Origin: Candidatus Curtissbacteria bacterium
GTDB taxonomy: Bacteria; Patescibacteriota; Microgenomatia; Curtissbacterales; GWA2-41-24
Assembly: GCA_030647775.1 (NCBI GenBank)
Contig: JAUSJC010000010.1
Location: forward strand, 6,208-70,207
Direction: 5' to 3'
DNA: 64,000 nucleotides
Made by a program: the position numbers and the translations under genes. Position 1 is the first letter of the stretch, and the number at the start of each line of letters is the position of its first letter. This document shows positions 3,239 through 33,208 of this stretch, piece by piece. Below the pieces are notes generated by a model, which saw only the letters and a list, made by a program, of their open reading frames with translations, was not told the DNA's origin and made no database searches.

Positions 3239-3697
3239 TTGATGATAAAAATAATTAAAAATACTATCCGCTATATGTCACCGGTATTATTACTGCTGAC
3301 GATTCCGGCAATCGTTATGGCTCAAGCTCCCGCAACACTTCCCGGCGGCAATACTACAACCATAACTCAAACAAGTGGATCTATTCCTATCCCGACAGCT
3401 TTATCACAAACAGGTGACATTACTGTCGTCATTGGCGGCATCATTAGGTTTATTCTTGTTACCGCCTTCGTCATTGCCTTTATCATGCTTTTGGTCGGTG
3501 GCATCCGCTGGATCCTGGCAGGAGGAGATGAAAAAGCTGTCGAAAAGGCCAGGAACACAATAACGGCCGCCCTAATTGGTTTGGTAGTTGTCCTTGTTGC
3601 TTTTGCTCTTATCAGGTTAGTAGAGCTGTTTTTTGGCGTAAATATCATTTCCGGCCTGACGGTTCCAAGAATCAGTCCATTGCAAACACCACTGTAG
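3239..3697 (+). CDS. VirB2/TrbC-like pilin paralog (152 aa).
   Basis: Strong RBS (AGGGGGTGA) upstream. 'LVGGIRWILAGGDEKAVEKARNTITAALIGLVVV' TM-loop-TM. Confidence 0.55.
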   Translation: MMIKIIKNTIRYMSPVLLLLTIPAIVMAQAPATLPGGNTTTITQTSGSIPIPTALSQTGDITVVIGGIIRFILVTAFVIAFIMLLVGGIRWILAGGDEKAVEKARNTITAALIGLVVVLVAFALIRLVELFFGVNIISGLTVPRISPLQTPL

Positions 3698-4095: not shown

Positions 4096-6969
4096 ATGAA
4101 AAAACTCGCCGCCGTTTTTCTATTAGTCATCTTCTTTGGCGCTTCGATTATTGCGACCCCTCTCCAGGCAGGCCATAATCTCCCGGGAAGCCCCTACAAA
4201 AATCCAGACCCGGTAAGGGCCCCATATGGTGACCCCCTGTTCACGACCCAACTTACCAAAGTAACTATGAAACCGATTGAGAAGAAGCTCGAGGGTTTTG
4301 GATCAAACGGTCGCTATTCGGAAGCACAACAAGTAACTCTTGCACATACTTTTGATATTCCTGTTAATTTCGCTGAAGTTTCCGCAATATTCGCCAAATC
4401 TAACTCTGATTATCTGGAAGGCAAATTCCAAGACCAGGATCACCAAAACCAAAATCTGGTCAATTCAAACTCACAAAAATTTAATGAATTCTTTGGCCCC
4501 AGCCAAAAGCTTATGCCAAAAATTATGACAGATGAACTCAAGGTTGAATATATCAACTATGTCAAAGATCACGAGAACCTTCCGGAATACAAAACTAAAA
4601 TTACCGATATCGAAGGCAAAAATTCCAAAACCGTTAGTGATCTGGTGTCCCAATTTGGGATACCAGATTCATCAAAAATCGGATCCGATACATGGGGAAA
4701 ATATTGGGCTAAAATTCCGACAGCTTTTTCTCAACCATATTCCGGGTTTATGGTATTTAGAGTTGTTGACGGTAATAAGGAAAATGACCAAATATTAAAA
4801 CAAGGCACTTGCCCTGATAACGAAAACAACGACAGTCGAATGATTGATTTTGTTCTTCCGGAATATTTCCGGACTGCGGCAACCGCCAACGAATTAAATA
4901 AAATAATTCTCCCGAAAGCAGCCCAATCCGCGCAAAAAAACTTTTTAAAGGAGGCCGTTTCCGGTGTTATTAATAACCTCTCGCCGTTCAAAGATTCCGC
5001 TATTTCTAAAACTTTAGAAAAATTCTTAAGAAGAAGCTTCAATAATCTGAACCCTGTCAAAATTGTTTATGCGCAGACATCGGAGGAAGAGTTACCCCCC
5101 GAACTCCCACCAGAACTCCTACCTTACCGGGAACAATGCCATGCGCCAACGGAATTTCAACTAAAAGATAACCCGGGTTCTGGCCCTTTTTACTCTCTCC
5201 CGGAATTATCGGTACTTATCCCTACCCACCCCCCGCAACTCAATCCCCTTGTTTTTACTAAGAGAAAAAATCCCCAGCGCACAAAAGACCCGGTAACCGG
5301 GGAGAGCTGCAACAATATAGATACTCCCCGCAAAATAGACAACGGTAAGTTTGTAAATTGTACTTTTAAAAAAATCTACGAAAGACAGCTTACAATCGCC
5401 ACGCCAGAGGACGCCCAAGCTCTCGGATGGGATTACTGCACAGAAGGTAAAGATTTGGACGGTAATCCAAGTGGTGTTTCTACATGCTACTTAACTGTAA
5501 GAGTTTACCCGATCTTTTACGTTCCATGGCTTTCGTCAATTTGGAACGATACGGTTTACTCGGACAAAAATGATCCGGCTATTATCTCCGGTGCCCAAGA
5601 AACCGGCCGGCCGGGAATCTTCGGTCTATTTACATCCCAAGGGACAGAAAACTTTATATTCCCGGATGGCAAAAATTTGCCTAGCTTAGAAGATGGCTCG
5701 CGCGATATTAAACAACGTTTTATCGGCGCGGTCGATTGCAACAAGGAATTTATCAAAAATTTTGCTCTGTTACCAAAAGCCCTGCAAGGAAATGGCACAA
5801 GCGGGTGCAATCTAAAAACAAGTAATCTGCCCGGAACCCCAGGCGCCTCGGGTACGCTTGATTTCTATGTTAAATATGGCGACACAAGCATTATTCCGAA
5901 AGACCCCGAAGCAATTAAAAAACTCGCCAACAGTTCGTGGCCGGACAACAACACCAACAGATGGGATTATGTTGTGGACAAATGCGCTTCAAATGGTATC
6001 AGCCCCGCTTTCTGCATCGCCATATGGTGGAAAGAAGGTGGTTTTGGCGGCCTGCTCCCGGGAGGAGGCCGCGCCAATAGCGAATTCGGCTGTTTCCCCG
6101 GCGGCAACACCAACCTTAAAGTCAACTTTGAAGATAGTCTAAACTGCTTTGTAAAATTTACCGCCCAGGAACACCCATACAATCCTCAAAACCCTTATGG
6201 CTCATTTTACGATTGGGTTAAATACTTTTGCGGGCCTTTTTCAAAAGGCTTGTGTACACATGACGATGACGTAAGTAAAGAACACCCAAATTTTCTGCCA
6301 GTTTTAGAAAGTGTTTATAATTCTGTTGCGCCCGGCCAAATTATTTTTGTTTCCAACCCCAACCCGGGCAATCCGGGAACCACTCCGGTTCCCATCGCCG
6401 ATGAACTCTTCAACTTCAAAACAGGTGATAAAGACTGGACCGCTCCGGAGAAAGCGGCAATGAGCCAGACCGCAGGGGTTGCGAATAAATCAGCTGTCTG
6501 GAAAACTCTTGTCTTTGCCGCGGGCAAAATCAATCTACGCAGAGGTACCACAGACCCCGAATGCCCGGATACCTGCTCTGGTTTAGCGCAAGATCCAAAC
6601 ACGCTTCTGATTCGCGACCCCTTCTTCGACCACCCGTCAAGAACTCTCTCCGGCCAAGTTTTTATTATGACTCACGAACTCGCCCATATAATTCAATACC
6701 GCAACCCGTCAATCCTCAATCAGTACAAAAGTAGTGAGGCTTACAAAGAGTTCGAAGATAAAGGCGTAATCAGAAGTTATTTCCTCTGTCCCAACGTAAA
6801 ACCCGGACACTTCTGTGCCAACGGGGTGACGGCGGAAAATGAGGACTATGGGGAAATGGCTGGAAATTATGTCGCGGATCGCGATAGCTATCTGGTGGAC
6901 TTCCCCACAGAGTACCCGCAACACTATAAATTCGCCCAAGATGTATTGTTTGGAGGAACAACATTTTAG
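4096..6969 (+). CDS. Large secreted multidomain protein (957 aa) with a C-terminal HEXXH zinc-metallopeptidase-like motif and a possible lysozyme/SLT-like motif.
   Basis: Signal peptide. 'VFIMTHELAHIIQY' (HEXXH) near the C-terminus. 'SPAFCIAIWWKEGGFGG' loosely resembles the SLT catalytic Glu region. Cys-rich. Confidence 0.6.
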   Translation: MKKLAAVFLLVIFFGASIIATPLQAGHNLPGSPYKNPDPVRAPYGDPLFTTQLTKVTMKPIEKKLEGFGSNGRYSEAQQVTLAHTFDIPVNFAEVSAIFAKSNSDYLEGKFQDQDHQNQNLVNSNSQKFNEFFGPSQKLMPKIMTDELKVEYINYVKDHENLPEYKTKITDIEGKNSKTVSDLVSQFGIPDSSKIGSDTWGKYWAKIPTAFSQPYSGFMVFRVVDGNKENDQILKQGTCPDNENNDSRMIDFVLPEYFRTAATANELNKIILPKAAQSAQKNFLKEAVSGVINNLSPFKDSAISKTLEKFLRRSFNNLNPVKIVYAQTSEEELPPELPPELLPYREQCHAPTEFQLKDNPGSGPFYSLPELSVLIPTHPPQLNPLVFTKRKNPQRTKDPVTGESCNNIDTPRKIDNGKFVNCTFKKIYERQLTIATPEDAQALGWDYCTEGKDLDGNPSGVSTCYLTVRVYPIFYVPWLSSIWNDTVYSDKNDPAIISGAQETGRPGIFGLFTSQGTENFIFPDGKNLPSLEDGSRDIKQRFIGAVDCNKEFIKNFALLPKALQGNGTSGCNLKTSNLPGTPGASGTLDFYVKYGDTSIIPKDPEAIKKLANSSWPDNNTNRWDYVVDKCASNGISPAFCIAIWWKEGGFGGLLPGGGRANSEFGCFPGGNTNLKVNFEDSLNCFVKFTAQEHPYNPQNPYGSFYDWVKYFCGPFSKGLCTHDDDVSKEHPNFLPVLESVYNSVAPGQIIFVSNPNPGNPGTTPVPIADELFNFKTGDKDWTAPEKAAMSQTAGVANKSAVWKTLVFAAGKINLRRGTTDPECPDTCSGLAQDPNTLLIRDPFFDHPSRTLSGQVFIMTHELAHIIQYRNPSILNQYKSSEAYKEFEDKGVIRSYFLCPNVKPGHFCANGVTAENEDYGEMAGNYVADRDSYLVDFPTEYPQHYKFAQDVLFGGTTF

Positions 6970-27694: not shown

Positions 27695-27958
27695 TTGGAA
27701 CAAAAAGCTTTAAAAATTCCGGGTGAAGATTTCACCTTGATAATCAAAAAAGGGGTACCAAAAACAGTAATCGTCATAAGCAAAAAAGTTGCCAAATTAG
27801 CAGTAGATAGAAATAGGATCAGACGGCTTTTCAAAGAGGCTCTAAGGAGTTTGAATTTTAAGGGTCAGACAACGGTTATAGTCAAAAAAAATATCGCCCA
27901 GTACAAAAAAGAACAAGTACAAAAAGCTTTAGAAAAATTGCTCACCAAATATGTCTAA
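27695..27958 (+). CDS. rnpA: Ribonuclease P protein component (short form).
   Basis: Position directly after rpmH. 'RNRIRRLFKEA' motif. 87 aa, basic. Confidence 0.65.
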   Translation: MEQKALKIPGEDFTLIIKKGVPKTVIVISKKVAKLAVDRNRIRRLFKEALRSLNFKGQTTVIVKKNIAQYKKEQVQKALEKLLTKYV

Positions 27959-28165: not shown

Positions 28166-28987
28166 ATGAACCCATACGATACTTTCTTATTCAACCCGAT
28201 CCTTAATCTCTTAATAGCAATCTATACTTTTTTGCACGCGCTTTCGATTCCAGGAGCACTTGGGCTATCAATAATTATTCTCTCCGCTGGAATCAGGCTT
28301 GTCCTTTGGCCGTTAACATCAGTGCAGCTTAGAAGCACCCAAAAAATGGCAGCTCTCAAACCGCATCTGGACAGGATTAAAATCGATCATGGCCACGATA
28401 AAGTGCGTCACCAGCAGGAGGTTAGCAAGCTTTACAAAGAACACGGCGTTAATCCTTTGGCTGGTTGTTTGCCTCTTCTTGTACAAATGCCGTTTTTTAT
28501 TGGGCTCTACAATGTTTTGGATAAGGCCTTGCAGTTTAATAATGCCAACTTTATAGGTTCGATAAACAGCCATCTTTATTCAACCTCCCTTTACCTTACC
28601 ACCAAACCAGACACTTCCTTTTTGGGTATCTCCCTCTCTACCCGCCCCAACGAATGGGCGCATGTAGGTTTTATCATTTTAGCTATCCCCCTTATCACGG
28701 GACTGCTCCAATTTGTCCAGTCAAAGATGCTTACACCGCAGGTGTCGCCCACCGCTATCAAAAAGAGCGGCGATAAAAAAGCCAGCACGGAAGACACCAT
28801 GTCCCAAGTCCAGTCCCAAATGACTTATCTTATGCCGGTTATGATTGCTTTCTTTTCATATGGTTTTGCCGTTGGCCTCTCCCTCTACTGGAATACATTC
28901 ACCATTATTGGTATCATCCAGCAATATATAATCTCCGGTCCCGGAGCCTTGAATAAATATCTGCCGAAGAGATTACAGAAAATTTAA
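28166..28987 (+). CDS. yidC: Membrane protein insertase YidC (short Gram-positive type).
   Basis: 'LWPLT...MAALKP...LYKEHGVNPLAGCLPLLVQMPFFIGLY'. Confidence 0.85.
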   Translation: MNPYDTFLFNPILNLLIAIYTFLHALSIPGALGLSIIILSAGIRLVLWPLTSVQLRSTQKMAALKPHLDRIKIDHGHDKVRHQQEVSKLYKEHGVNPLAGCLPLLVQMPFFIGLYNVLDKALQFNNANFIGSINSHLYSTSLYLTTKPDTSFLGISLSTRPNEWAHVGFIILAIPLITGLLQFVQSKMLTPQVSPTAIKKSGDKKASTEDTMSQVQSQMTYLMPVMIAFFSYGFAVGLSLYWNTFTIIGIIQQYIISGPGALNKYLPKRLQKI

Positions 28988-29063: not shown

Positions 29064-29627
29064 GTGAGCCCTCAGGCCGAATCGGTTCAGGATGACGGTG
29101 AGAAGAAGTGTCAAAATAAAGTTATGACAAAACTAAAGTTGGACGAAAATTTCGTAGCGGAAAACGTCAGGCAAATCATCGAAATGCTCGGCGTTTCGGC
29201 AACCGCCGAAGTTTCTAAAGAAGAAGACACTTTAGGCCCGCAGTCCGAAGGACGAGGACCGCATGGCCCTGTATACGTCGTGGATATTAGCTCCGAAGAC
29301 TCATCTCTTCTAATAGGCAAACACGGTGCCAACCTCGAAAGCCTGCAGTTTATTCTTGCCGTCCGCCTCAAAACTTTAACCGGTCAGGACGATTTTGAAA
29401 TTTTTGTTGACGTGGACAATTTTCGCAGGCAAAAAGAAGACCGTTTAGAAAAAATGGCCCGCCAGATCGCCGAAAAAGTCGGCCAAACCGGCAATCCGGA
29501 GCCCCTCTATGATTTATCTCCGTCAGAACGCCGCCTCATCCACACAATTCTTACCGATAATCCGCAAGTCACCACGATTTCTGAAGGCGAAGGCATTGAC
29601 CGTCACCTAATCATAAAACCTAAGTAA
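29064..29627 (+). CDS. jag: Jag/KhpB-like RNA-binding protein (KH + R3H domains).
   Basis: 'IGKHGANLESLQFILAV' (KH). C-terminal 'LSPSERRLIHTILTDNPQVTTISEGEG' (R3H). Start is either GTG 29064 or ATG 29124. Confidence 0.7.
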   Translation: MSPQAESVQDDGEKKCQNKVMTKLKLDENFVAENVRQIIEMLGVSATAEVSKEEDTLGPQSEGRGPHGPVYVVDISSEDSSLLIGKHGANLESLQFILAVRLKTLTGQDDFEIFVDVDNFRRQKEDRLEKMARQIAEKVGQTGNPEPLYDLSPSERRLIHTILTDNPQVTTISEGEGIDRHLIIKPK

Positions 29628-29702: not shown

Positions 29703-30938
29703 ATGGCCAAATCAGATTTTCTCTTTTTGCTAGTTTTAGCAAGTATTCCTATCCAGCTCGGCCGCCACTTTTTCTTCCCCTACTCGTACGTTCTTGGCTT
29801 GCCTATCGATTACCGCGCCCTCACAATTTATGTTTCCGATATTTTTGTAATTTTGTATCTGGCTGCGTTCTTTTGGGAGAACCGAACCAAGATAAAATCA
29901 ATCTACAAGAGTTACAAAACCATTATCAATATAATTGCCGCCTTTAACGCTTATCTTTTTATAAGTTCACTATTATTTTCCCTTTCGGGACAAGCTTCGC
30001 TGGTTTTTGTTGCGAAGATAATCATTTTCAGTTTGCTGGGAATTGCGTCGGCCGTAAGCTTCTCGCGAAAAACCACGCTTAAGCCGGGCATTTTAATCCT
30101 CAAAATCGCCATGGTTCTGGAATCGCTAGTCCTCTTGGCGCAGTTCATCCTCCAGCGGTCAATCGGTTTAGGAATTTTAGGTGAACGGACTTTCGATACA
30201 ACAACACCATCAATAGCTCATGTTGAACTTTTTGGTAACCAGCTCCTTCGTCCCTACGGCACTTTTCCGCACCCTAATGTTGCCGCCGCCTTTTTGGTTT
30301 TCGGATTAATATTGCTTTTGGGGTCAAATCGAATCAAAAAACCAAAATTAGACCAAATGGCGCTTCTCTTTGCCGCCGCCGGACTCATCGCAACTTTTTC
30401 CAAATCAGCCTTCGCGGCAATCGCCGTTGCTCTTGGGATAATCTTTGCCAAGAAAAAAGTATTTTTGATTTTAGTCCTCGCCCTTTTGGCCATAGGAATT
30501 TTAATTCTCAAAAATACTTCCGATTCTTCTCTCCCGACCATTTCCGAACGCATGGTTCTCATCCAAAAAAGCCTGGATATCTCTCTCCTCAACCCGGCCT
30601 TCGGTGTCGGGGCCAATAATTTTATTTTGGAGCTTTCGAAGGCGAACCTATTTTCCGTTAGCCAAATCCGCCTGCTCCAGCCGGTCCACAATATATTTTT
30701 CTTAATCCTGGCCGAAAACGGCATCATCGGCCTCCTGCTTTTTACGGCGCTTTTGTTTGTTGTCTTAAAATCCGTCAATACCAAAACCAAACTTGCCCTT
30801 TTCGTATCGATCCTAATCTTCGGCAGTGTCGACCATTTTCTCTGGACGCTCCAGCAGGGCCAGCTCCTCCTCTGGCTCTCAATCGGCTATATCCTCAGTT
30901 CTTCTCCTTTCATCGCGAGGAGCGAAGCGACGAAGTGA
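29703..30938 (+). CDS. O-antigen ligase (Wzy_C)-like polytopic membrane protein.
   Basis: ~10 TM segments with a central large loop. Neighbours are a Wzx flippase and a Wzz-like protein. Confidence 0.5.
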   Translation: MAKSDFLFLLVLASIPIQLGRHFFFPYSYVLGLPIDYRALTIYVSDIFVILYLAAFFWENRTKIKSIYKSYKTIINIIAAFNAYLFISSLLFSLSGQASLVFVAKIIIFSLLGIASAVSFSRKTTLKPGILILKIAMVLESLVLLAQFILQRSIGLGILGERTFDTTTPSIAHVELFGNQLLRPYGTFPHPNVAAAFLVFGLILLLGSNRIKKPKLDQMALLFAAAGLIATFSKSAFAAIAVALGIIFAKKKVFLILVLALLAIGILILKNTSDSSLPTISERMVLIQKSLDISLLNPAFGVGANNFILELSKANLFSVSQIRLLQPVHNIFFLILAENGIIGLLLFTALLFVVLKSVNTKTKLALFVSILIFGSVDHFLWTLQQGQLLLWLSIGYILSSSPFIARSEATK

Positions 30939-30939
30939 T

Positions 30940-31015
30940 CTAAAACACGTCATTCTGGGGAGTGGAACGACTCCAGAATCCCTCACAGCAGATTCTGGAC
31001 CCGACATCACTAAAG
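30940..31015. repeat. Family C hairpin element, copy 1 of the 'gtcattctggggagtgRaacgactccagaatc...cagattctggac' element.
   Basis: Near-identical copy at 33103-33170. Confidence 0.5.
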
Positions 31016-31159
31016 TTAAGACGGGCAGGCAAGCTCGAACAATAAAATCCTCTATTCTTCGAACGAAGTGAGAAGTTCTCCTGTAACAATGTAGCAATTT
31101 AACAGATGAAGCGAATTTTGAGCGAAGATCAAAGAACCACGGTCTTTAGGGGCGGATAT

Positions 31160-31399
31160 CTATTGCCAGTTAAAAACCGGTACTCTAATAATAGTTTGGG
31201 CTTTGACTTTTTCCGCCGCTTGTTTTTTTACAAGAGTGTCAAGCTTTTTGGAAATTTCGGCACTATAGTATCTTTCACCACATTGACTGCAGACTTCGAT
31301 CGGGACATTCTTGACCACAAAAAGTTTATCCCCCCACCTGAAGTCCACATCAACGATTTTAATTTCAGTTTTTCCTTTACAAAAATAACAACTAGACAC
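31160..31399 (-). CDS. YgiT-type (MqsA-like) zinc-finger antitoxin candidate.
   Basis: 'CYFCKGK...CSQCGERYY' double CxxC. Overlaps the upstream DUF4258 gene by 8 nt. Confidence 0.6.
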   Translation of the reverse strand: MSSCYFCKGKTEIKIVDVDFRWGDKLFVVKNVPIEVCSQCGERYYSAEISKKLDTLVKKQAAEKVKAQTIIRVPVFNWQ

Positions 31400-31712
31400 G
31401 GTTTTTCAACTCCTTTGCTCTTTTCTTAAAATTTATCCAAGTAGGCGGTTTCGGTCTATAGACAGTAACAAGCAGCAATCTGCTGTTTCTTTTACCGCAA
31501 ACTACGTGGAGCGGTTTATCGCCAAGCTTGCCTGCTACAAGACAACTTTCGCCTCTGGGGTCGCTTGGATACTCTTCTATTATACTACCTTCGAGAAGAC
31601 ACTGTTCTATTTCAGCTACAGTGATTTGCTCTTCCTGCCTTTCTCTATGGGCATGACTTGAAAGATCATATTCCTGATTCAAAACCTTCTTCCTTATGAA
31701 GGAAATTTTCAT
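31392..31712 (-). CDS. DUF4258-family toxin candidate.
   Basis: 'SIIEEYPSDPRGESCLVAGKLGDKPLHVVCGKRNSRLLLVTVYRPKPPTW' matches the DUF4258 consensus. Confidence 0.65.
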   Translation of the reverse strand: MKISFIRKKVLNQEYDLSSHAHRERQEEQITVAEIEQCLLEGSIIEEYPSDPRGESCLVAGKLGDKPLHVVCGKRNSRLLLVTVYRPKPPTWINFKKRAKELKNRV

Positions 31713-31757
31713 ATTGGCATTTTAGCAGAAAATTCATCTTCCAGGTTTTTGGTAGCA

Positions 31758-31831
31758 TCGACCATTTTCTCTGGACGCTCCAGCAGGGCCAGCTCCTCCT
31801 CTGGTTCTCGCTAGGTTATATTTTAAGTTCG
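31758..31831. repeat. Duplicated 3' fragment of the O-antigen-ligase-like gene; direct repeat of 30828-30901.
   Basis: 52 nt identical ('cgaccattttctctggacgctccagcagggccagctcctcctctgg'), then diverged. Confidence 0.65.
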
Positions 31832-31864
31832 CAAAAATCCCATCCAAGCTGATATATTAACCTC

Positions 31865-33208
31865 GTGGTCAAAAAGGTTTTTTATAACGTAGCCTCACAG
31901 GTTTTTGGCAAAGGCTTAACAGCTTCAGCGACTTTCATCGTTACCATCTTAATTTCCCGTGCTCTTGGTGAAACCGGCTACGGTGATTTTACAAAAATTG
32001 CTGTTTTCGTCGGCTATTTTTATACTCTCGCCGATTTCGGCCTCAACTCAATCTATATAAAAATTGCCGACGACAAGAACCAAATCAGCCTTTTAAAAAC
32101 CCTGCTTGGCACACGTCTTTTGATGGCGGTAAGTCTGGCAACCATTGCAAGTGCCATCGGCTTTTTAGTTCCCTATAATCCGGCAACCGCCACCGGTTTC
32201 TCTCCGCTGGTCAAAATCGGCATTGCCATAGCGTCTCTTACTATCATCACTCAAGCCGCTTACACCACTTCAAATGCCCTTTTCCAGAAAAAGCTGCGCT
32301 ATGATCTTTCGACAATTGCCGTTGCCACGGGAGCGATCGCTGTTCTTATCGGCACACTTTTGGTAACGGTTATGGGCGGCGGCGTTCTTGCCTACACTGC
32401 AATTTATGTAATCCAGGGCATCGTCAATGTGATAGTTGCCTACTTTTTTATCCGCAAACTAACCGGGCTGAAAGTTGTGCCAAAGTTTTTAAAAGAGGAC
32501 GCTAAAAAAATAATTTCAGGCGCCTGGCCGGTTGGTATTGCCTTAATCTTAAACCTCATTTATTTTAGAATCGACGTTTTTATTCTTTCCAATTTCAGAT
32601 CAAGCGCCGAAGTCGGGGTCTACGGCCTTGCCTACCAGTTTTTCGAAGCGGCGCTGACAGTTCCCATCTTTTTTGCCAACAGCATCTATCCGCCGCTGTC
32701 CCAGCTTGCCTCAAAAAACTACGGGGAATTTAAGTCGAAAGTTAATTTCTGGCTTTTGACGTTAACAGGGATATCTATCCTGCTCGTGATATTTTTGGAG
32801 GTCATCGCCAATTTTATCCCGTTCATTTATCAAGGCCGTTTTATGGGCTCGGTCCTCTCTCTTAAGATTCTTGCCCTCGGCATGCCCTTTTTCTTTGCCT
32901 CCGCCCTTCTTTGGCACACGCTCATAATTTTTGGCAGGCAAAAATTTCTAATTTTAATTTATGGCATTGGTGCCGCCTTTAATTTAATTGCCAACTTAAT
33001 TTTTATACCTCAATATGGCTACATGGCTGCAACCGTCATCACGGTTATATCCGAAGCCCTCGTTCTTGCTCTTCTTGCCGTTGCGTACAGGTATTTCTCT
33101 AATAAGAAACCTGTCATTCTGGGGAGTGAAACGACTCCAGAATCCACAAGAAAACAGATTCTGGACAAGTCTTTCGACCCCGAGCTCAAGACCGAGGGGC
33201 CAGAATGA
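31865..33208 (+). CDS. Polysaccharide biosynthesis protein / Wzx-type oligosaccharide flippase.
   Basis: 'MVKKVFYNVASQVFGKGLTASATFIVTILISRALG'. ~12 TM segments. The C-terminal 30 aa are encoded by a family-C repeat copy. Confidence 0.6.
   Translation: MVKKVFYNVASQVFGKGLTASATFIVTILISRALGETGYGDFTKIAVFVGYFYTLADFGLNSIYIKIADDKNQISLLKTLLGTRLLMAVSLATIASAIGFLVPYNPATATGFSPLVKIGIAIASLTIITQAAYTTSNALFQKKLRYDLSTIAVATGAIAVLIGTLLVTVMGGGVLAYTAIYVIQGIVNVIVAYFFIRKLTGLKVVPKFLKEDAKKIISGAWPVGIALILNLIYFRIDVFILSNFRSSAEVGVYGLAYQFFEAALTVPIFFANSIYPPLSQLASKNYGEFKSKVNFWLLTLTGISILLVIFLEVIANFIPFIYQGRFMGSVLSLKILALGMPFFFASALLWHTLIIFGRQKFLILIYGIGAAFNLIANLIFIPQYGYMAATVITVISEALVLALLAVAYRYFSNKKPVILGSETTPESTRKQILDKSFDPELKTEGPE
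33103..33170. repeat. Family C hairpin element, copy 2, embedded in frame at the 3' end of the flippase CDS.
   Basis: 'cctgtcattctggggagtgaaacgactccagaatcc...cagattctggac'. Confidence 0.5.

Follow-up and report, generated by a model that had tools for sequence, protein, structure and literature searches.

A predicted DUF4258/zinc-ribbon toxin–antitoxin module between two allelic ends of an O-antigen-ligase-like gene in Candidatus Curtissbacteria

In the MqsR/MqsA (YgiU/YgiT) toxin–antitoxin (TA) system of E. coli the toxin gene comes first and overlaps the gene for the antitoxin. The N-terminal zinc ribbon of MqsA is the toxin-binding domain, and its helix-turn-helix (HTH) is the DNA-binding domain. 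A gene pair with the same toxin-first, overlapping arrangement is described here from a 64-kb window, by which we mean the whole stretch of 64,000 nucleotides that was analysed (positions 6,208 to 70,207 of contig JAUSJC010000010.1, assembly GCA_030647775.1, Candidatus Curtissbacteria). The two genes lie between an O-antigen-ligase-like gene and a flippase gene, and the 3' end of the ligase gene is found on both sides of them. As in MqsR/MqsA, the antitoxin-like protein carries a YgiT-type CxxC...CxxC zinc ribbon, and the toxin-like protein is modelled with a RelE-superfamily fold whose best TM-score is to MqsR in 3HI2. The pair differs in that the toxin belongs to DUF4258 (PF14076) and not to MqsR (PF15723), and the antitoxin, at 79 residues, lacks the C-terminal HTH-XRE domain.

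DUF4258 is among 13 BECR-fold toxin families of the RelE/ParE superfamily in a 2025 survey, where it is described as absent from the literature, with an unknown target and 17 DUF4258-MqsA fusion proteins (PMC11980606). The window toxin is a member by profile match, and an MqsA-type partner is known for the family from the fusions. The order given there is antitoxin/toxin (PMC11980606), whereas the window pair runs toxin then antitoxin, and the partner in the window is a zinc-ribbon-only protein. The pair is a member of a family that is known to the databases and lacks experimental characterisation, set in an architecture that resembles integrative elements but with no recombinase seen.

Integrative islands and cis-mobilisable elements (CIMEs), which target gene 3' ends and bring a replacement end with them (attL/attR), have in common with the locus their direct repeats, an identical core between diverged arms, an intact target open reading frame (ORF) and the existence of empty sites. 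Here, in contrast, no integrase or excisionase is seen, the unit is smaller than 1 kb, no larger parent element was found among ~175 related loci, and in place of a tRNA or tmRNA gene a protein-coding polysaccharide gene serves as target. Homology-facilitated illegitimate recombination and Campbell-type single crossovers are known from studies of natural transformation. They too give one junction within a homologous segment, a second that is abrupt (31735-31740 in the window) and a chimera of two alleles, although for this locus such an event is inferred from sequence, and natural transformation is not known in these organisms. Defence and TA hotspots of core genomes likewise gather varied TA or abortive-infection (Abi) modules at one intergenic junction across species. 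The window-type site differs in being very small, with inserts of 0.4-3.3 kb, a single module and no mobile-element genes.

The ligase–flippase junction and its two gene ends

Comparison with related loci shows an insertion into the conserved ligase–flippase junction of the window, since orthologous empty sites exist. The ~175 related ligase loci, taken from GTDB representatives and JGI metagenomes, were screened with a hidden Markov model (HMM) of the ligase tail and with blastn. In L178, L001, L084-86/L095, L096 and L087 only 13-19 nt separate the ligase stop from the flippase start, and in most other Curtissbacteria loci 34-125 nt lie between the conserved tail end and the flippase start. 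The empty locus L178 is the closest flippase relative (91% identity in amino acids, ~88% in nucleotides). An earlier reading of the same DNA from its letters, hereafter the sequence-only reading, had proposed a small insertion event; an insertion it is, but a composite one of nested repeats and a 577-bp TA module, not one simple cassette. About 0.84 kb of insert lies between the two ligase ends, which repeat with a period of 929 bp.

The ligase 3' end at 30819-30901 (copy 1, c1) recurs at 31748-31830 (copy 2, c2) with 71 of 83 positions identical (86%) at a spacing of 929, and this is the longest direct repeat of the window. The longest exact run is 47 nt (30829-30875, identical to 31758-31804), and a 48-nt core pattern was counted exactly two times, with 0.00 expected from 100 shuffles. 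The duplication recognised in the sequence-only reading is therefore real, with the second copy displaced by 1 nt (30828-30901 pairs with 31757-31830, not with 31758-31831), while its figure of 52 identical nucleotides gives way to the 47-nt run. None of the ~175 loci carried the duplication in the absence of an insertion. In a tblastx self-comparison of the window, nothing but noise was found as further gene-end fragments besides the ligase tail, and an apparent match at 27778-27888 was rejected as noise within rnpA.

The downstream copy is the native gene end, contiguous with the flippase gene as in the relatives with empty sites. Its likeness to native ligases reaches left to ~31740 and right through the stop codon at 31850-31852. 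Translated in frame, c2 reads FGSIDHFLWTLQQGQLLLWFSLGYILSSQKSHPS followed by a stop. Only two residues set it apart from the C-terminus of P0007, an intact orthologue with which it has the terminus ...SSQKSHPS in common, and it is also close to P0010. The native stop is kept, as is the native 12-nt spacer before the flippase start, and window positions 31740-31888 are 87% identical to L001 with the spacer and the flippase start included. There is no indel and no internal stop codon; c2 lacks a start codon and is not among the listed ORFs. The sequence-only reading had called this copy a decayed fragment, a description that does not fit. True decay looks different: in the second tail of locus L002 an L has changed to P and 1 nt has been deleted.

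The upstream copy, in turn, departs from the native sequence after ...GYILSS and reads SPFIARSEATK and a stop out of a palindromic repeat, so that the working ligase has these last 12 codons in place of the native QKSHPS-stop end. The proposal that an intact gene end was regenerated on one side thus stands as far as the ORF is concerned, but the native last codons have been lost from it. The right arm of c1, the palindromic repeat and a 22-mer, GTAACAATGTAGCAATTTAACA, are common to the ligase–flippase junctions of L003 and L018, neither of which has TA genes or a second tail. The 22-mer marks the right edge of this L003-type junction allele. Because the c1 repeat and 22-mer match L003 and L018 while c2 matches native tails, the window joins an L003-type junction allele, on its left side, to a native junction of the L001/L178 type, with the TA module between them.

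All differences between c1 and c2 lie in the arms. Of the 36 arm positions 12 differ, 4 of them within the 10 nt of the left arm and 8 within the 26 nt of the right, against 0 of 47 in the core, and only three amino-acid changes result, all conservative (V/I, L/F and I/L). A dead fragment decaying at random would not show such a pattern, and the arms have the look of two alleles, each of which evolved as a functional gene end. In 48 distinct orthologous tails, no two cores are identical; of the 1096 ortholog pairs with at least 10 arm differences, 0 have 0 core differences and 2 have no more than one. Since the arm differences are mostly synonymous, none falls in the core and neither indel nor stop has arisen, the repeat is a recombination mosaic in which two functional alleles are combined, and not a product of decay. 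The core, in which an uncommon CAT codon state is present in both copies, is of more recent common origin than the arms, because a homologous integration crossed over there or because the tract was later subject to gene conversion.

The same comparison bears on the model of the sequence-only reading, according to which a single insertion duplicated ~80 nt of its target in situ and the non-functional copy then decayed. That direct repeats bracket the insert and that only one copy belongs to an ORF with a start codon agree with it. The confinement of every difference to the arms, the conservative nature of the few that alter the protein and the integrity of c2 do not, and neither does the separate affinity of c2 to the native tails of orthologues and of the c1 right arm and repeat to the L003/L018 allele class. 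The insert, moreover, has no transposase ORF and no terminal inverted repeats pairing its ends, and a duplication of at least 83 nt far exceeds known target-site duplications. We regard this origin as very unlikely. An event of insertion-sequence or transposon type is excluded on the same grounds, namely the lack of a transposase and of terminal inverted repeats and a mosaic duplication of at least 83 nt.

A chimera of two strain variants, joined at the tail during metagenome assembly, would also place two alleles side by side, and the source is indeed a contig of a metagenome-assembled genome (MAG) whose tails resemble two alleles. However, at 31735-31740, where the TA module meets c2, no sequence is common to the window and any single-tail allele, so that this junction must exist in real reads, the identity of 47 nt is below the length of the repeats that usually cause mis-joins, and L002, an independent assembly from another run, has the same architecture. 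An assembly artefact is extremely improbable.

Origin of the structure and recurrence at the junction

The account we favour, and consider more likely than not, is that homologous recombination within the conserved core joined a diverged ligase tail, repeats and a type II TA module to the resident gene. Homologous recombination is suggested because the copies are identical over the 47-nt core, with mostly synonymous differences on either side. The incoming DNA would have brought with it a ligase tail of diverged sequence, the palindromic repeats and the TA module, and recombination between it and the resident ligase gene would have taken place through the core. As possible routes, a circular molecule might have integrated by a Campbell-type single crossover, recombination might have been homology-facilitated and illegitimate at its other end, or the segments might have been juxtaposed and then subjected to gene conversion. 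The upstream copy keeps the ligase ORF intact but is of the other allele type, and the native end downstream is now start-less. L178 weakly favours the Campbell-type route: its left arm agrees with c1 at 9 of 10 positions and with c2 at 7 of 10, while its native end resembles c2, although the numbers are small. A further exchange between the 47-nt repeats could remove the insert and give back a native gene.

Other cargo is found at the same junction in related species. In L002, the closest ligase relative (81-82% amino acid identity), a plus-strand DUF6922/AbiEii pair is present (L002:2621-3575); after it come the decayed second ligase tail (3500-3575) and a further hairpin-type repeat, and the flippase gene is not reached before the end of the contig. 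In L005:7212-8205, HicB/HicA genes and an unassigned 152-aa ORF lie between ligase and flippase genes with no tail duplication. Further insertions occupy L004:7260-8396, L010:7241-8878 (with L100-102), L019:5586-8746, L022:7243-7479, L103:1643-2038 and L108:3301-3579 (with L109). Their ORFs, of 78-545 aa, gave no significant Pfam match and no PADLOC match, the sole Pfam match being a sub-threshold Radical_SAM on the 545-aa ORF of L010 (18.6 bits against 29.5); it is possible that they are unrecognised TA or defence genes. Among the cargo at the junction, only AbiEii of L002 is matched by PADLOC. Because different cargo (DUF4258/YgiT, DUF6922/AbiEii and HicAB) is present at one junction across species, the ligase–flippase junction is a recurrent landing site, or hotspot, which three TA/Abi families have used. 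The window locus offers a clean, datable case of the entry of a TA/Abi module into the very small, transposon-poor genomes of the candidate phyla radiation (CPR). The entry point is a conserved junction in a surface-polysaccharide operon, and the scar, two allelic ends with an identical core, is still readable.

The likeness between the window and L002 has also to be considered as shared ancestry. An old duplication common to both lineages, followed by turnover of the cargo, would make the 47-nt identity a recent gene conversion and uninformative on the entry of the TA module. The c2 copies of both loci have GGTTATATTTTAAGT and an I-type codon (AGCATCGAC), the c1 copies of both have GGCTATATCCTCAG, the two ligases are mutually closest, and the rare CAT state is present in both window copies. 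On the other hand, the left boundaries of c2 are ~12-15 nt apart in the two loci, nothing between the tails is common to them, the same arm states are also met in single-copy orthologues, L087 and L178 among them, and the site is empty in L178, the closest flippase relative. A duplication of such age is unlikely.

Carrying about the same weight is the explanation that the locus is the relic of a site-specific integrative element, in which the ligase 3' end served as attB, the element brought its own copy of the gene end as attP and integrated by means of a tyrosine or serine recombinase, c1 and c2 are attL and attR, and the integrase was lost or acts in trans on a CIME-like cis-mobilisable cassette. 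The use of a gene 3' end as target with regeneration of the ORF, and an identical core between diverged arms in the classic attL/attR pattern, are what such an element would leave, and the unrelated cargo of L002 is bracketed likewise, with a c2 left boundary within ~15 nt of that in the window. The ORFs between the repeats, however, are those of the TA pair and spurious antisense ones, and no others. No recombinase gene is present in the 0.93-kb unit or in the 1.0-kb unit of L002 (the remainder of the genome was not screened for a trans-acting enzyme), no larger island bounded by tail repeats occurs among the ~175 related loci, and the other junction insertions lack the duplication. We consider a site-specific origin improbable.

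Several observations weigh against recombination in the core as the origin of the locus. The tail duplication is present in only 2 loci of ~175, the window and L002, while the other hotspot insertions lack it, so duplication of the tail is not general to insertion at this site. DUF4258/zinc-finger cassettes elsewhere (L088, L092 and L093) have no flanking gene-end duplication. No relative closer than ~88% in nucleotides was found that could order the events or tell donor from recipient, and the Campbell-type, homology-facilitated illegitimate and conversion-after-juxtaposition routes all agree with the mosaic. In addition, identities to relatives are inconsistent from gene to gene, which leaves no reliable species tree by which events could be ordered.

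It is tempting to extend core-directed recombination to other TA cassettes of CPR bacteria that lack an integrase. These minimal cassettes might spread between strains by carrying the end of a conserved chromosomal gene and homing through a RecA-type single crossover in a core of ~47 nt, a generalisation that we hold to be possible but unlikely. If true, the target gene would remain intact, a start-less native end would be left behind, and the direct repeats would allow the cassette to loop out again. The process would be the counterpart, by homologous recombination, of integration through attP/attB, at a genus-wide hotspot near the replication origin. Nothing at the locus overturns current ideas.

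The toxin–antitoxin module

Both family assignments made in the sequence-only reading were confirmed by HMM searches, each well above its curated cut-off. The toxin-like protein matches the Pfam model PF14076 (DUF4258) at 80.1 bits against 25 (E=1.5e-22) over the complete profile (1-71 of 71), and the antitoxin-like protein matches the NCBIfam model TIGR03831 (YgiT_finger) at 59.4 bits against 20.2 (E=3.1e-16). The two minus-strand ORFs are present as had been described and overlap by 8 nt, toxin first.

An AlphaFold model of the toxin, computed from 30 homologues, has a pLDDT of 84.7. The top PDB matches returned by Foldseek for this model are all of the RelE superfamily, namely HigB2, MqsR and RelE, with ParE and PrpT also following. 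The best fold-search E-value (5e-3) is to HigB2, and the best superposition is with MqsR of the MqsR:MqsA-N complex 3HI2 (3hi2_D; TMq 0.63, TMt 0.72, rmsd 2.4 Å). By sequence, no relative of the toxin was found among solved structures in the PDB, and only noise was returned for the antitoxin. The toxin is predicted from the model to have a RelE/MqsR-like fold of the RelE/ParE superfamily, and by analogy with MqsRA and RelE-type systems it is most likely an mRNA endonuclease or ribonuclease.

The antitoxin has four cysteines in two CxxC pairs (C4, C7, C37 and C40). Full-length MqsA models fall below their cut-offs on it and align by their own N-terminal halves only: PF15731 reaches 23.8 against 30 (profile 3-74 of 131) and TIGR03830 reaches 25.1 against 61.8. 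In view of its 79 residues and these sub-threshold matches, the protein is best filed as a YgiT-finger-only partner and not as MqsA; it amounts to MqsA's zinc-ribbon half, with the HTH absent. By analogy, neutralisation would take place through direct binding, and operator binding of the MqsA type is not expected, as the antitoxin has no HTH domain. A compact and apparently self-sufficient DUF4258/zinc-ribbon module would be a convenient representative for a first experimental test of DUF4258, and is also suited to asking whether an MqsA-type zinc ribbon alone neutralises.

The same overlapping pair of a toxin and a 79-82-aa zinc-finger protein occurs at the unrelated loci L088, L092, L093, L175 and L177. 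DNA homology among the cassettes is confined to 31158-~31734 of the window, and since it ends at these points the portable unit is 577 bp long, a self-contained putative type II TA module on the minus strand, 31158-31734. Relative to L088, differences at first, second and third codon positions number 15/12/51 in the toxin gene and 13/13/33 in the antitoxin gene, and the third-position bias is seen in both genes against L088, L092, L093 and L175. As the differences between cassettes lie mainly at third codon positions, both ORFs are under purifying selection. We detected 137 toxin homologues, most of them of 106 aa and 65-80% identical. Residues H20, H22, E24 and R25 of the toxin are invariant. 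The closest homologues (P0122-P0124, P0130 and P0153) are all at other loci, and none of them lies beside a ligase or flippase gene.

Expression signals were sought upstream of both genes. The motif TGnTAnAAT, contained in the ~20 nt that the portable unit has upstream of the toxin gene, lies exactly 6 nt ahead of the toxin ATG at five distinct loci (L088, L092, L093, L175/L176 and L177), and no Shine-Dalgarno sequence precedes the toxin start in these cassettes. The arrangement suggests an extended -10 promoter and, given that the element is only 6 nt from the ATG, a leaderless toxin mRNA. An AAGGAG lies 10 nt upstream of the antitoxin GTG, inside the toxin gene, and the antitoxin is probably coupled to the toxin in translation. 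Nothing convincing was found for the TA operon in a terminator and sigma-70 scan.

Counting against this picture of the module are the fold-search E-values, which are weak (5e-3 to 3e-2), the generic sigma-70 scan, which requires a -35 element and did not report the proposed promoter, and the PADLOC models, which match neither toxin nor antitoxin. As for its role, at a variable surface-polysaccharide locus the pair is likely to act in phage defence or in stabilisation of the addiction type.

Some cassettes elsewhere have settings of their own. Those at L088:4001-4562 and L092:4001-4555 lie at the edge of polysaccharide clusters (glycosyltransferase, ManC, Bac_transf and DUF4012 genes), and that of L093/L094 belongs to a small island that also contains HicA/HicB and DUF2283 genes. 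The close toxin homologues are mostly on very short contigs (0.5-2 kb), which would fit cassettes in strain-variable regions that break metagenome assemblies.

Feature coordinates, repeats and neighbouring genes

The features of the locus are collected in Table 1. The order of yidC, jag, ligase, flippase, RNase H, Wzz-like and DUF4012 genes is kept in related Curtissbacteria contigs, with RNase H next after the flippase gene in the window. The ligase–flippase junction is ~4 kb from dnaA, with the same synteny in L084 and L087, and because of this distance it is presumably close to the replication origin. The ligase-like protein is a 100% match to a protein of an NCBI Candidatus Curtissbacteria MAG.

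Table 1. Positions of genes, repeats and signals around the ligase–flippase junction (window coordinates)
Feature	Position	Strand	Remarks
dnaA	25660-27012	minus	
rpmH, rnpA, yidD	between dnaA and yidC		
yidC	28166-28987		
jag	29064-29627		
O-antigen-ligase-like gene (Wzy_C)	29703-30938	+	intact, 411 aa; Pfam PF04932, E=3.7e-15
Repeat copy 1 (c1), working ligase 3' end	30819-30901	+	repeat search; tail HMM match 30810-30902
47-nt core, candidate crossover or gene-conversion tract	30829-30875	+	identical to 31758-31804
Half of palindromic 'GTCATCGCGAGG...' repeat, source of new ligase C-terminus	30902-30939	+	homologous to L003/L018 ligase–flippase junction
'Family-C' hairpin repeat nested in junction	30940-31082	+	second copy from 33107, flippase 3' end
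22-mer GTAACAATGTAGCAATTTAACA	31083-31104	+	exact in L003; 19 nt in L018, 18 nt in L017
Short intergenic element, 47 nt	31104-31150	+	94% identical to L005:10625-10671
Antitoxin-like gene, 79 aa, YgiT/MqsA-type zinc ribbon	31160-31399	minus	TIGR03831; GTG start
Toxin-like gene, 106 aa, DUF4258	31392-31712	minus	PF14076
Predicted extended -10 promoter element TGcTAAAAT	31719-31727	minus	6 nt before toxin ATG
Copy 2 (c2), start-less in-frame native ligase 3' end with native stop	31740-31852	+	repeat proper 31748-31830
Flippase gene (Polysacc_synt)	31865-33208	+	Pfam PF01943, E=1.1e-26

The TA gene pair is convergent with the ligase gene and splits it from the flippase gene, to which it is tightly coupled in relatives. 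A read-through transcript of the ligase gene would run antisense to the TA operon. The generic scan for sigma-70 promoters and terminators identified no flippase promoter.

The TA module gives way to c2 abruptly. The GC content of the insert is 0.38-0.41 and that of its flanks 0.44-0.50, which is weak evidence and was given no weight. A plus-strand ORF of 107 aa (31106-31429), antisense to the antitoxin gene and with no Pfam match, is most likely spurious. The counterpart of the short intergenic element in L005 stands after the Wzz-like gene and closes in a clean hairpin (CCACGGCC TTTA GGCCGTGG); no Rfam match was found in 30600-32100 at E<=1, the element at 31104-31150 included.

The family-C repeat that had been noticed in the sequence-only reading is a genuine one, with two window copies (30943-30981 and 33107-33145) that are 92% identical and each placed at a gene 3' end. 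The last ~30 codons of the flippase gene (33107-33208; …PVILGSETTPESTRKQILDKSFDPELKTEGPE and stop) are read from the second copy, and the flippase has 447 aa against 414-430 aa in its orthologues. Small palindromic repeats are seen recurrently at gene 3' ends, where they alter C-termini, in the ligase and flippase of the window as well as in the ligases of L003, L018 and P0006.

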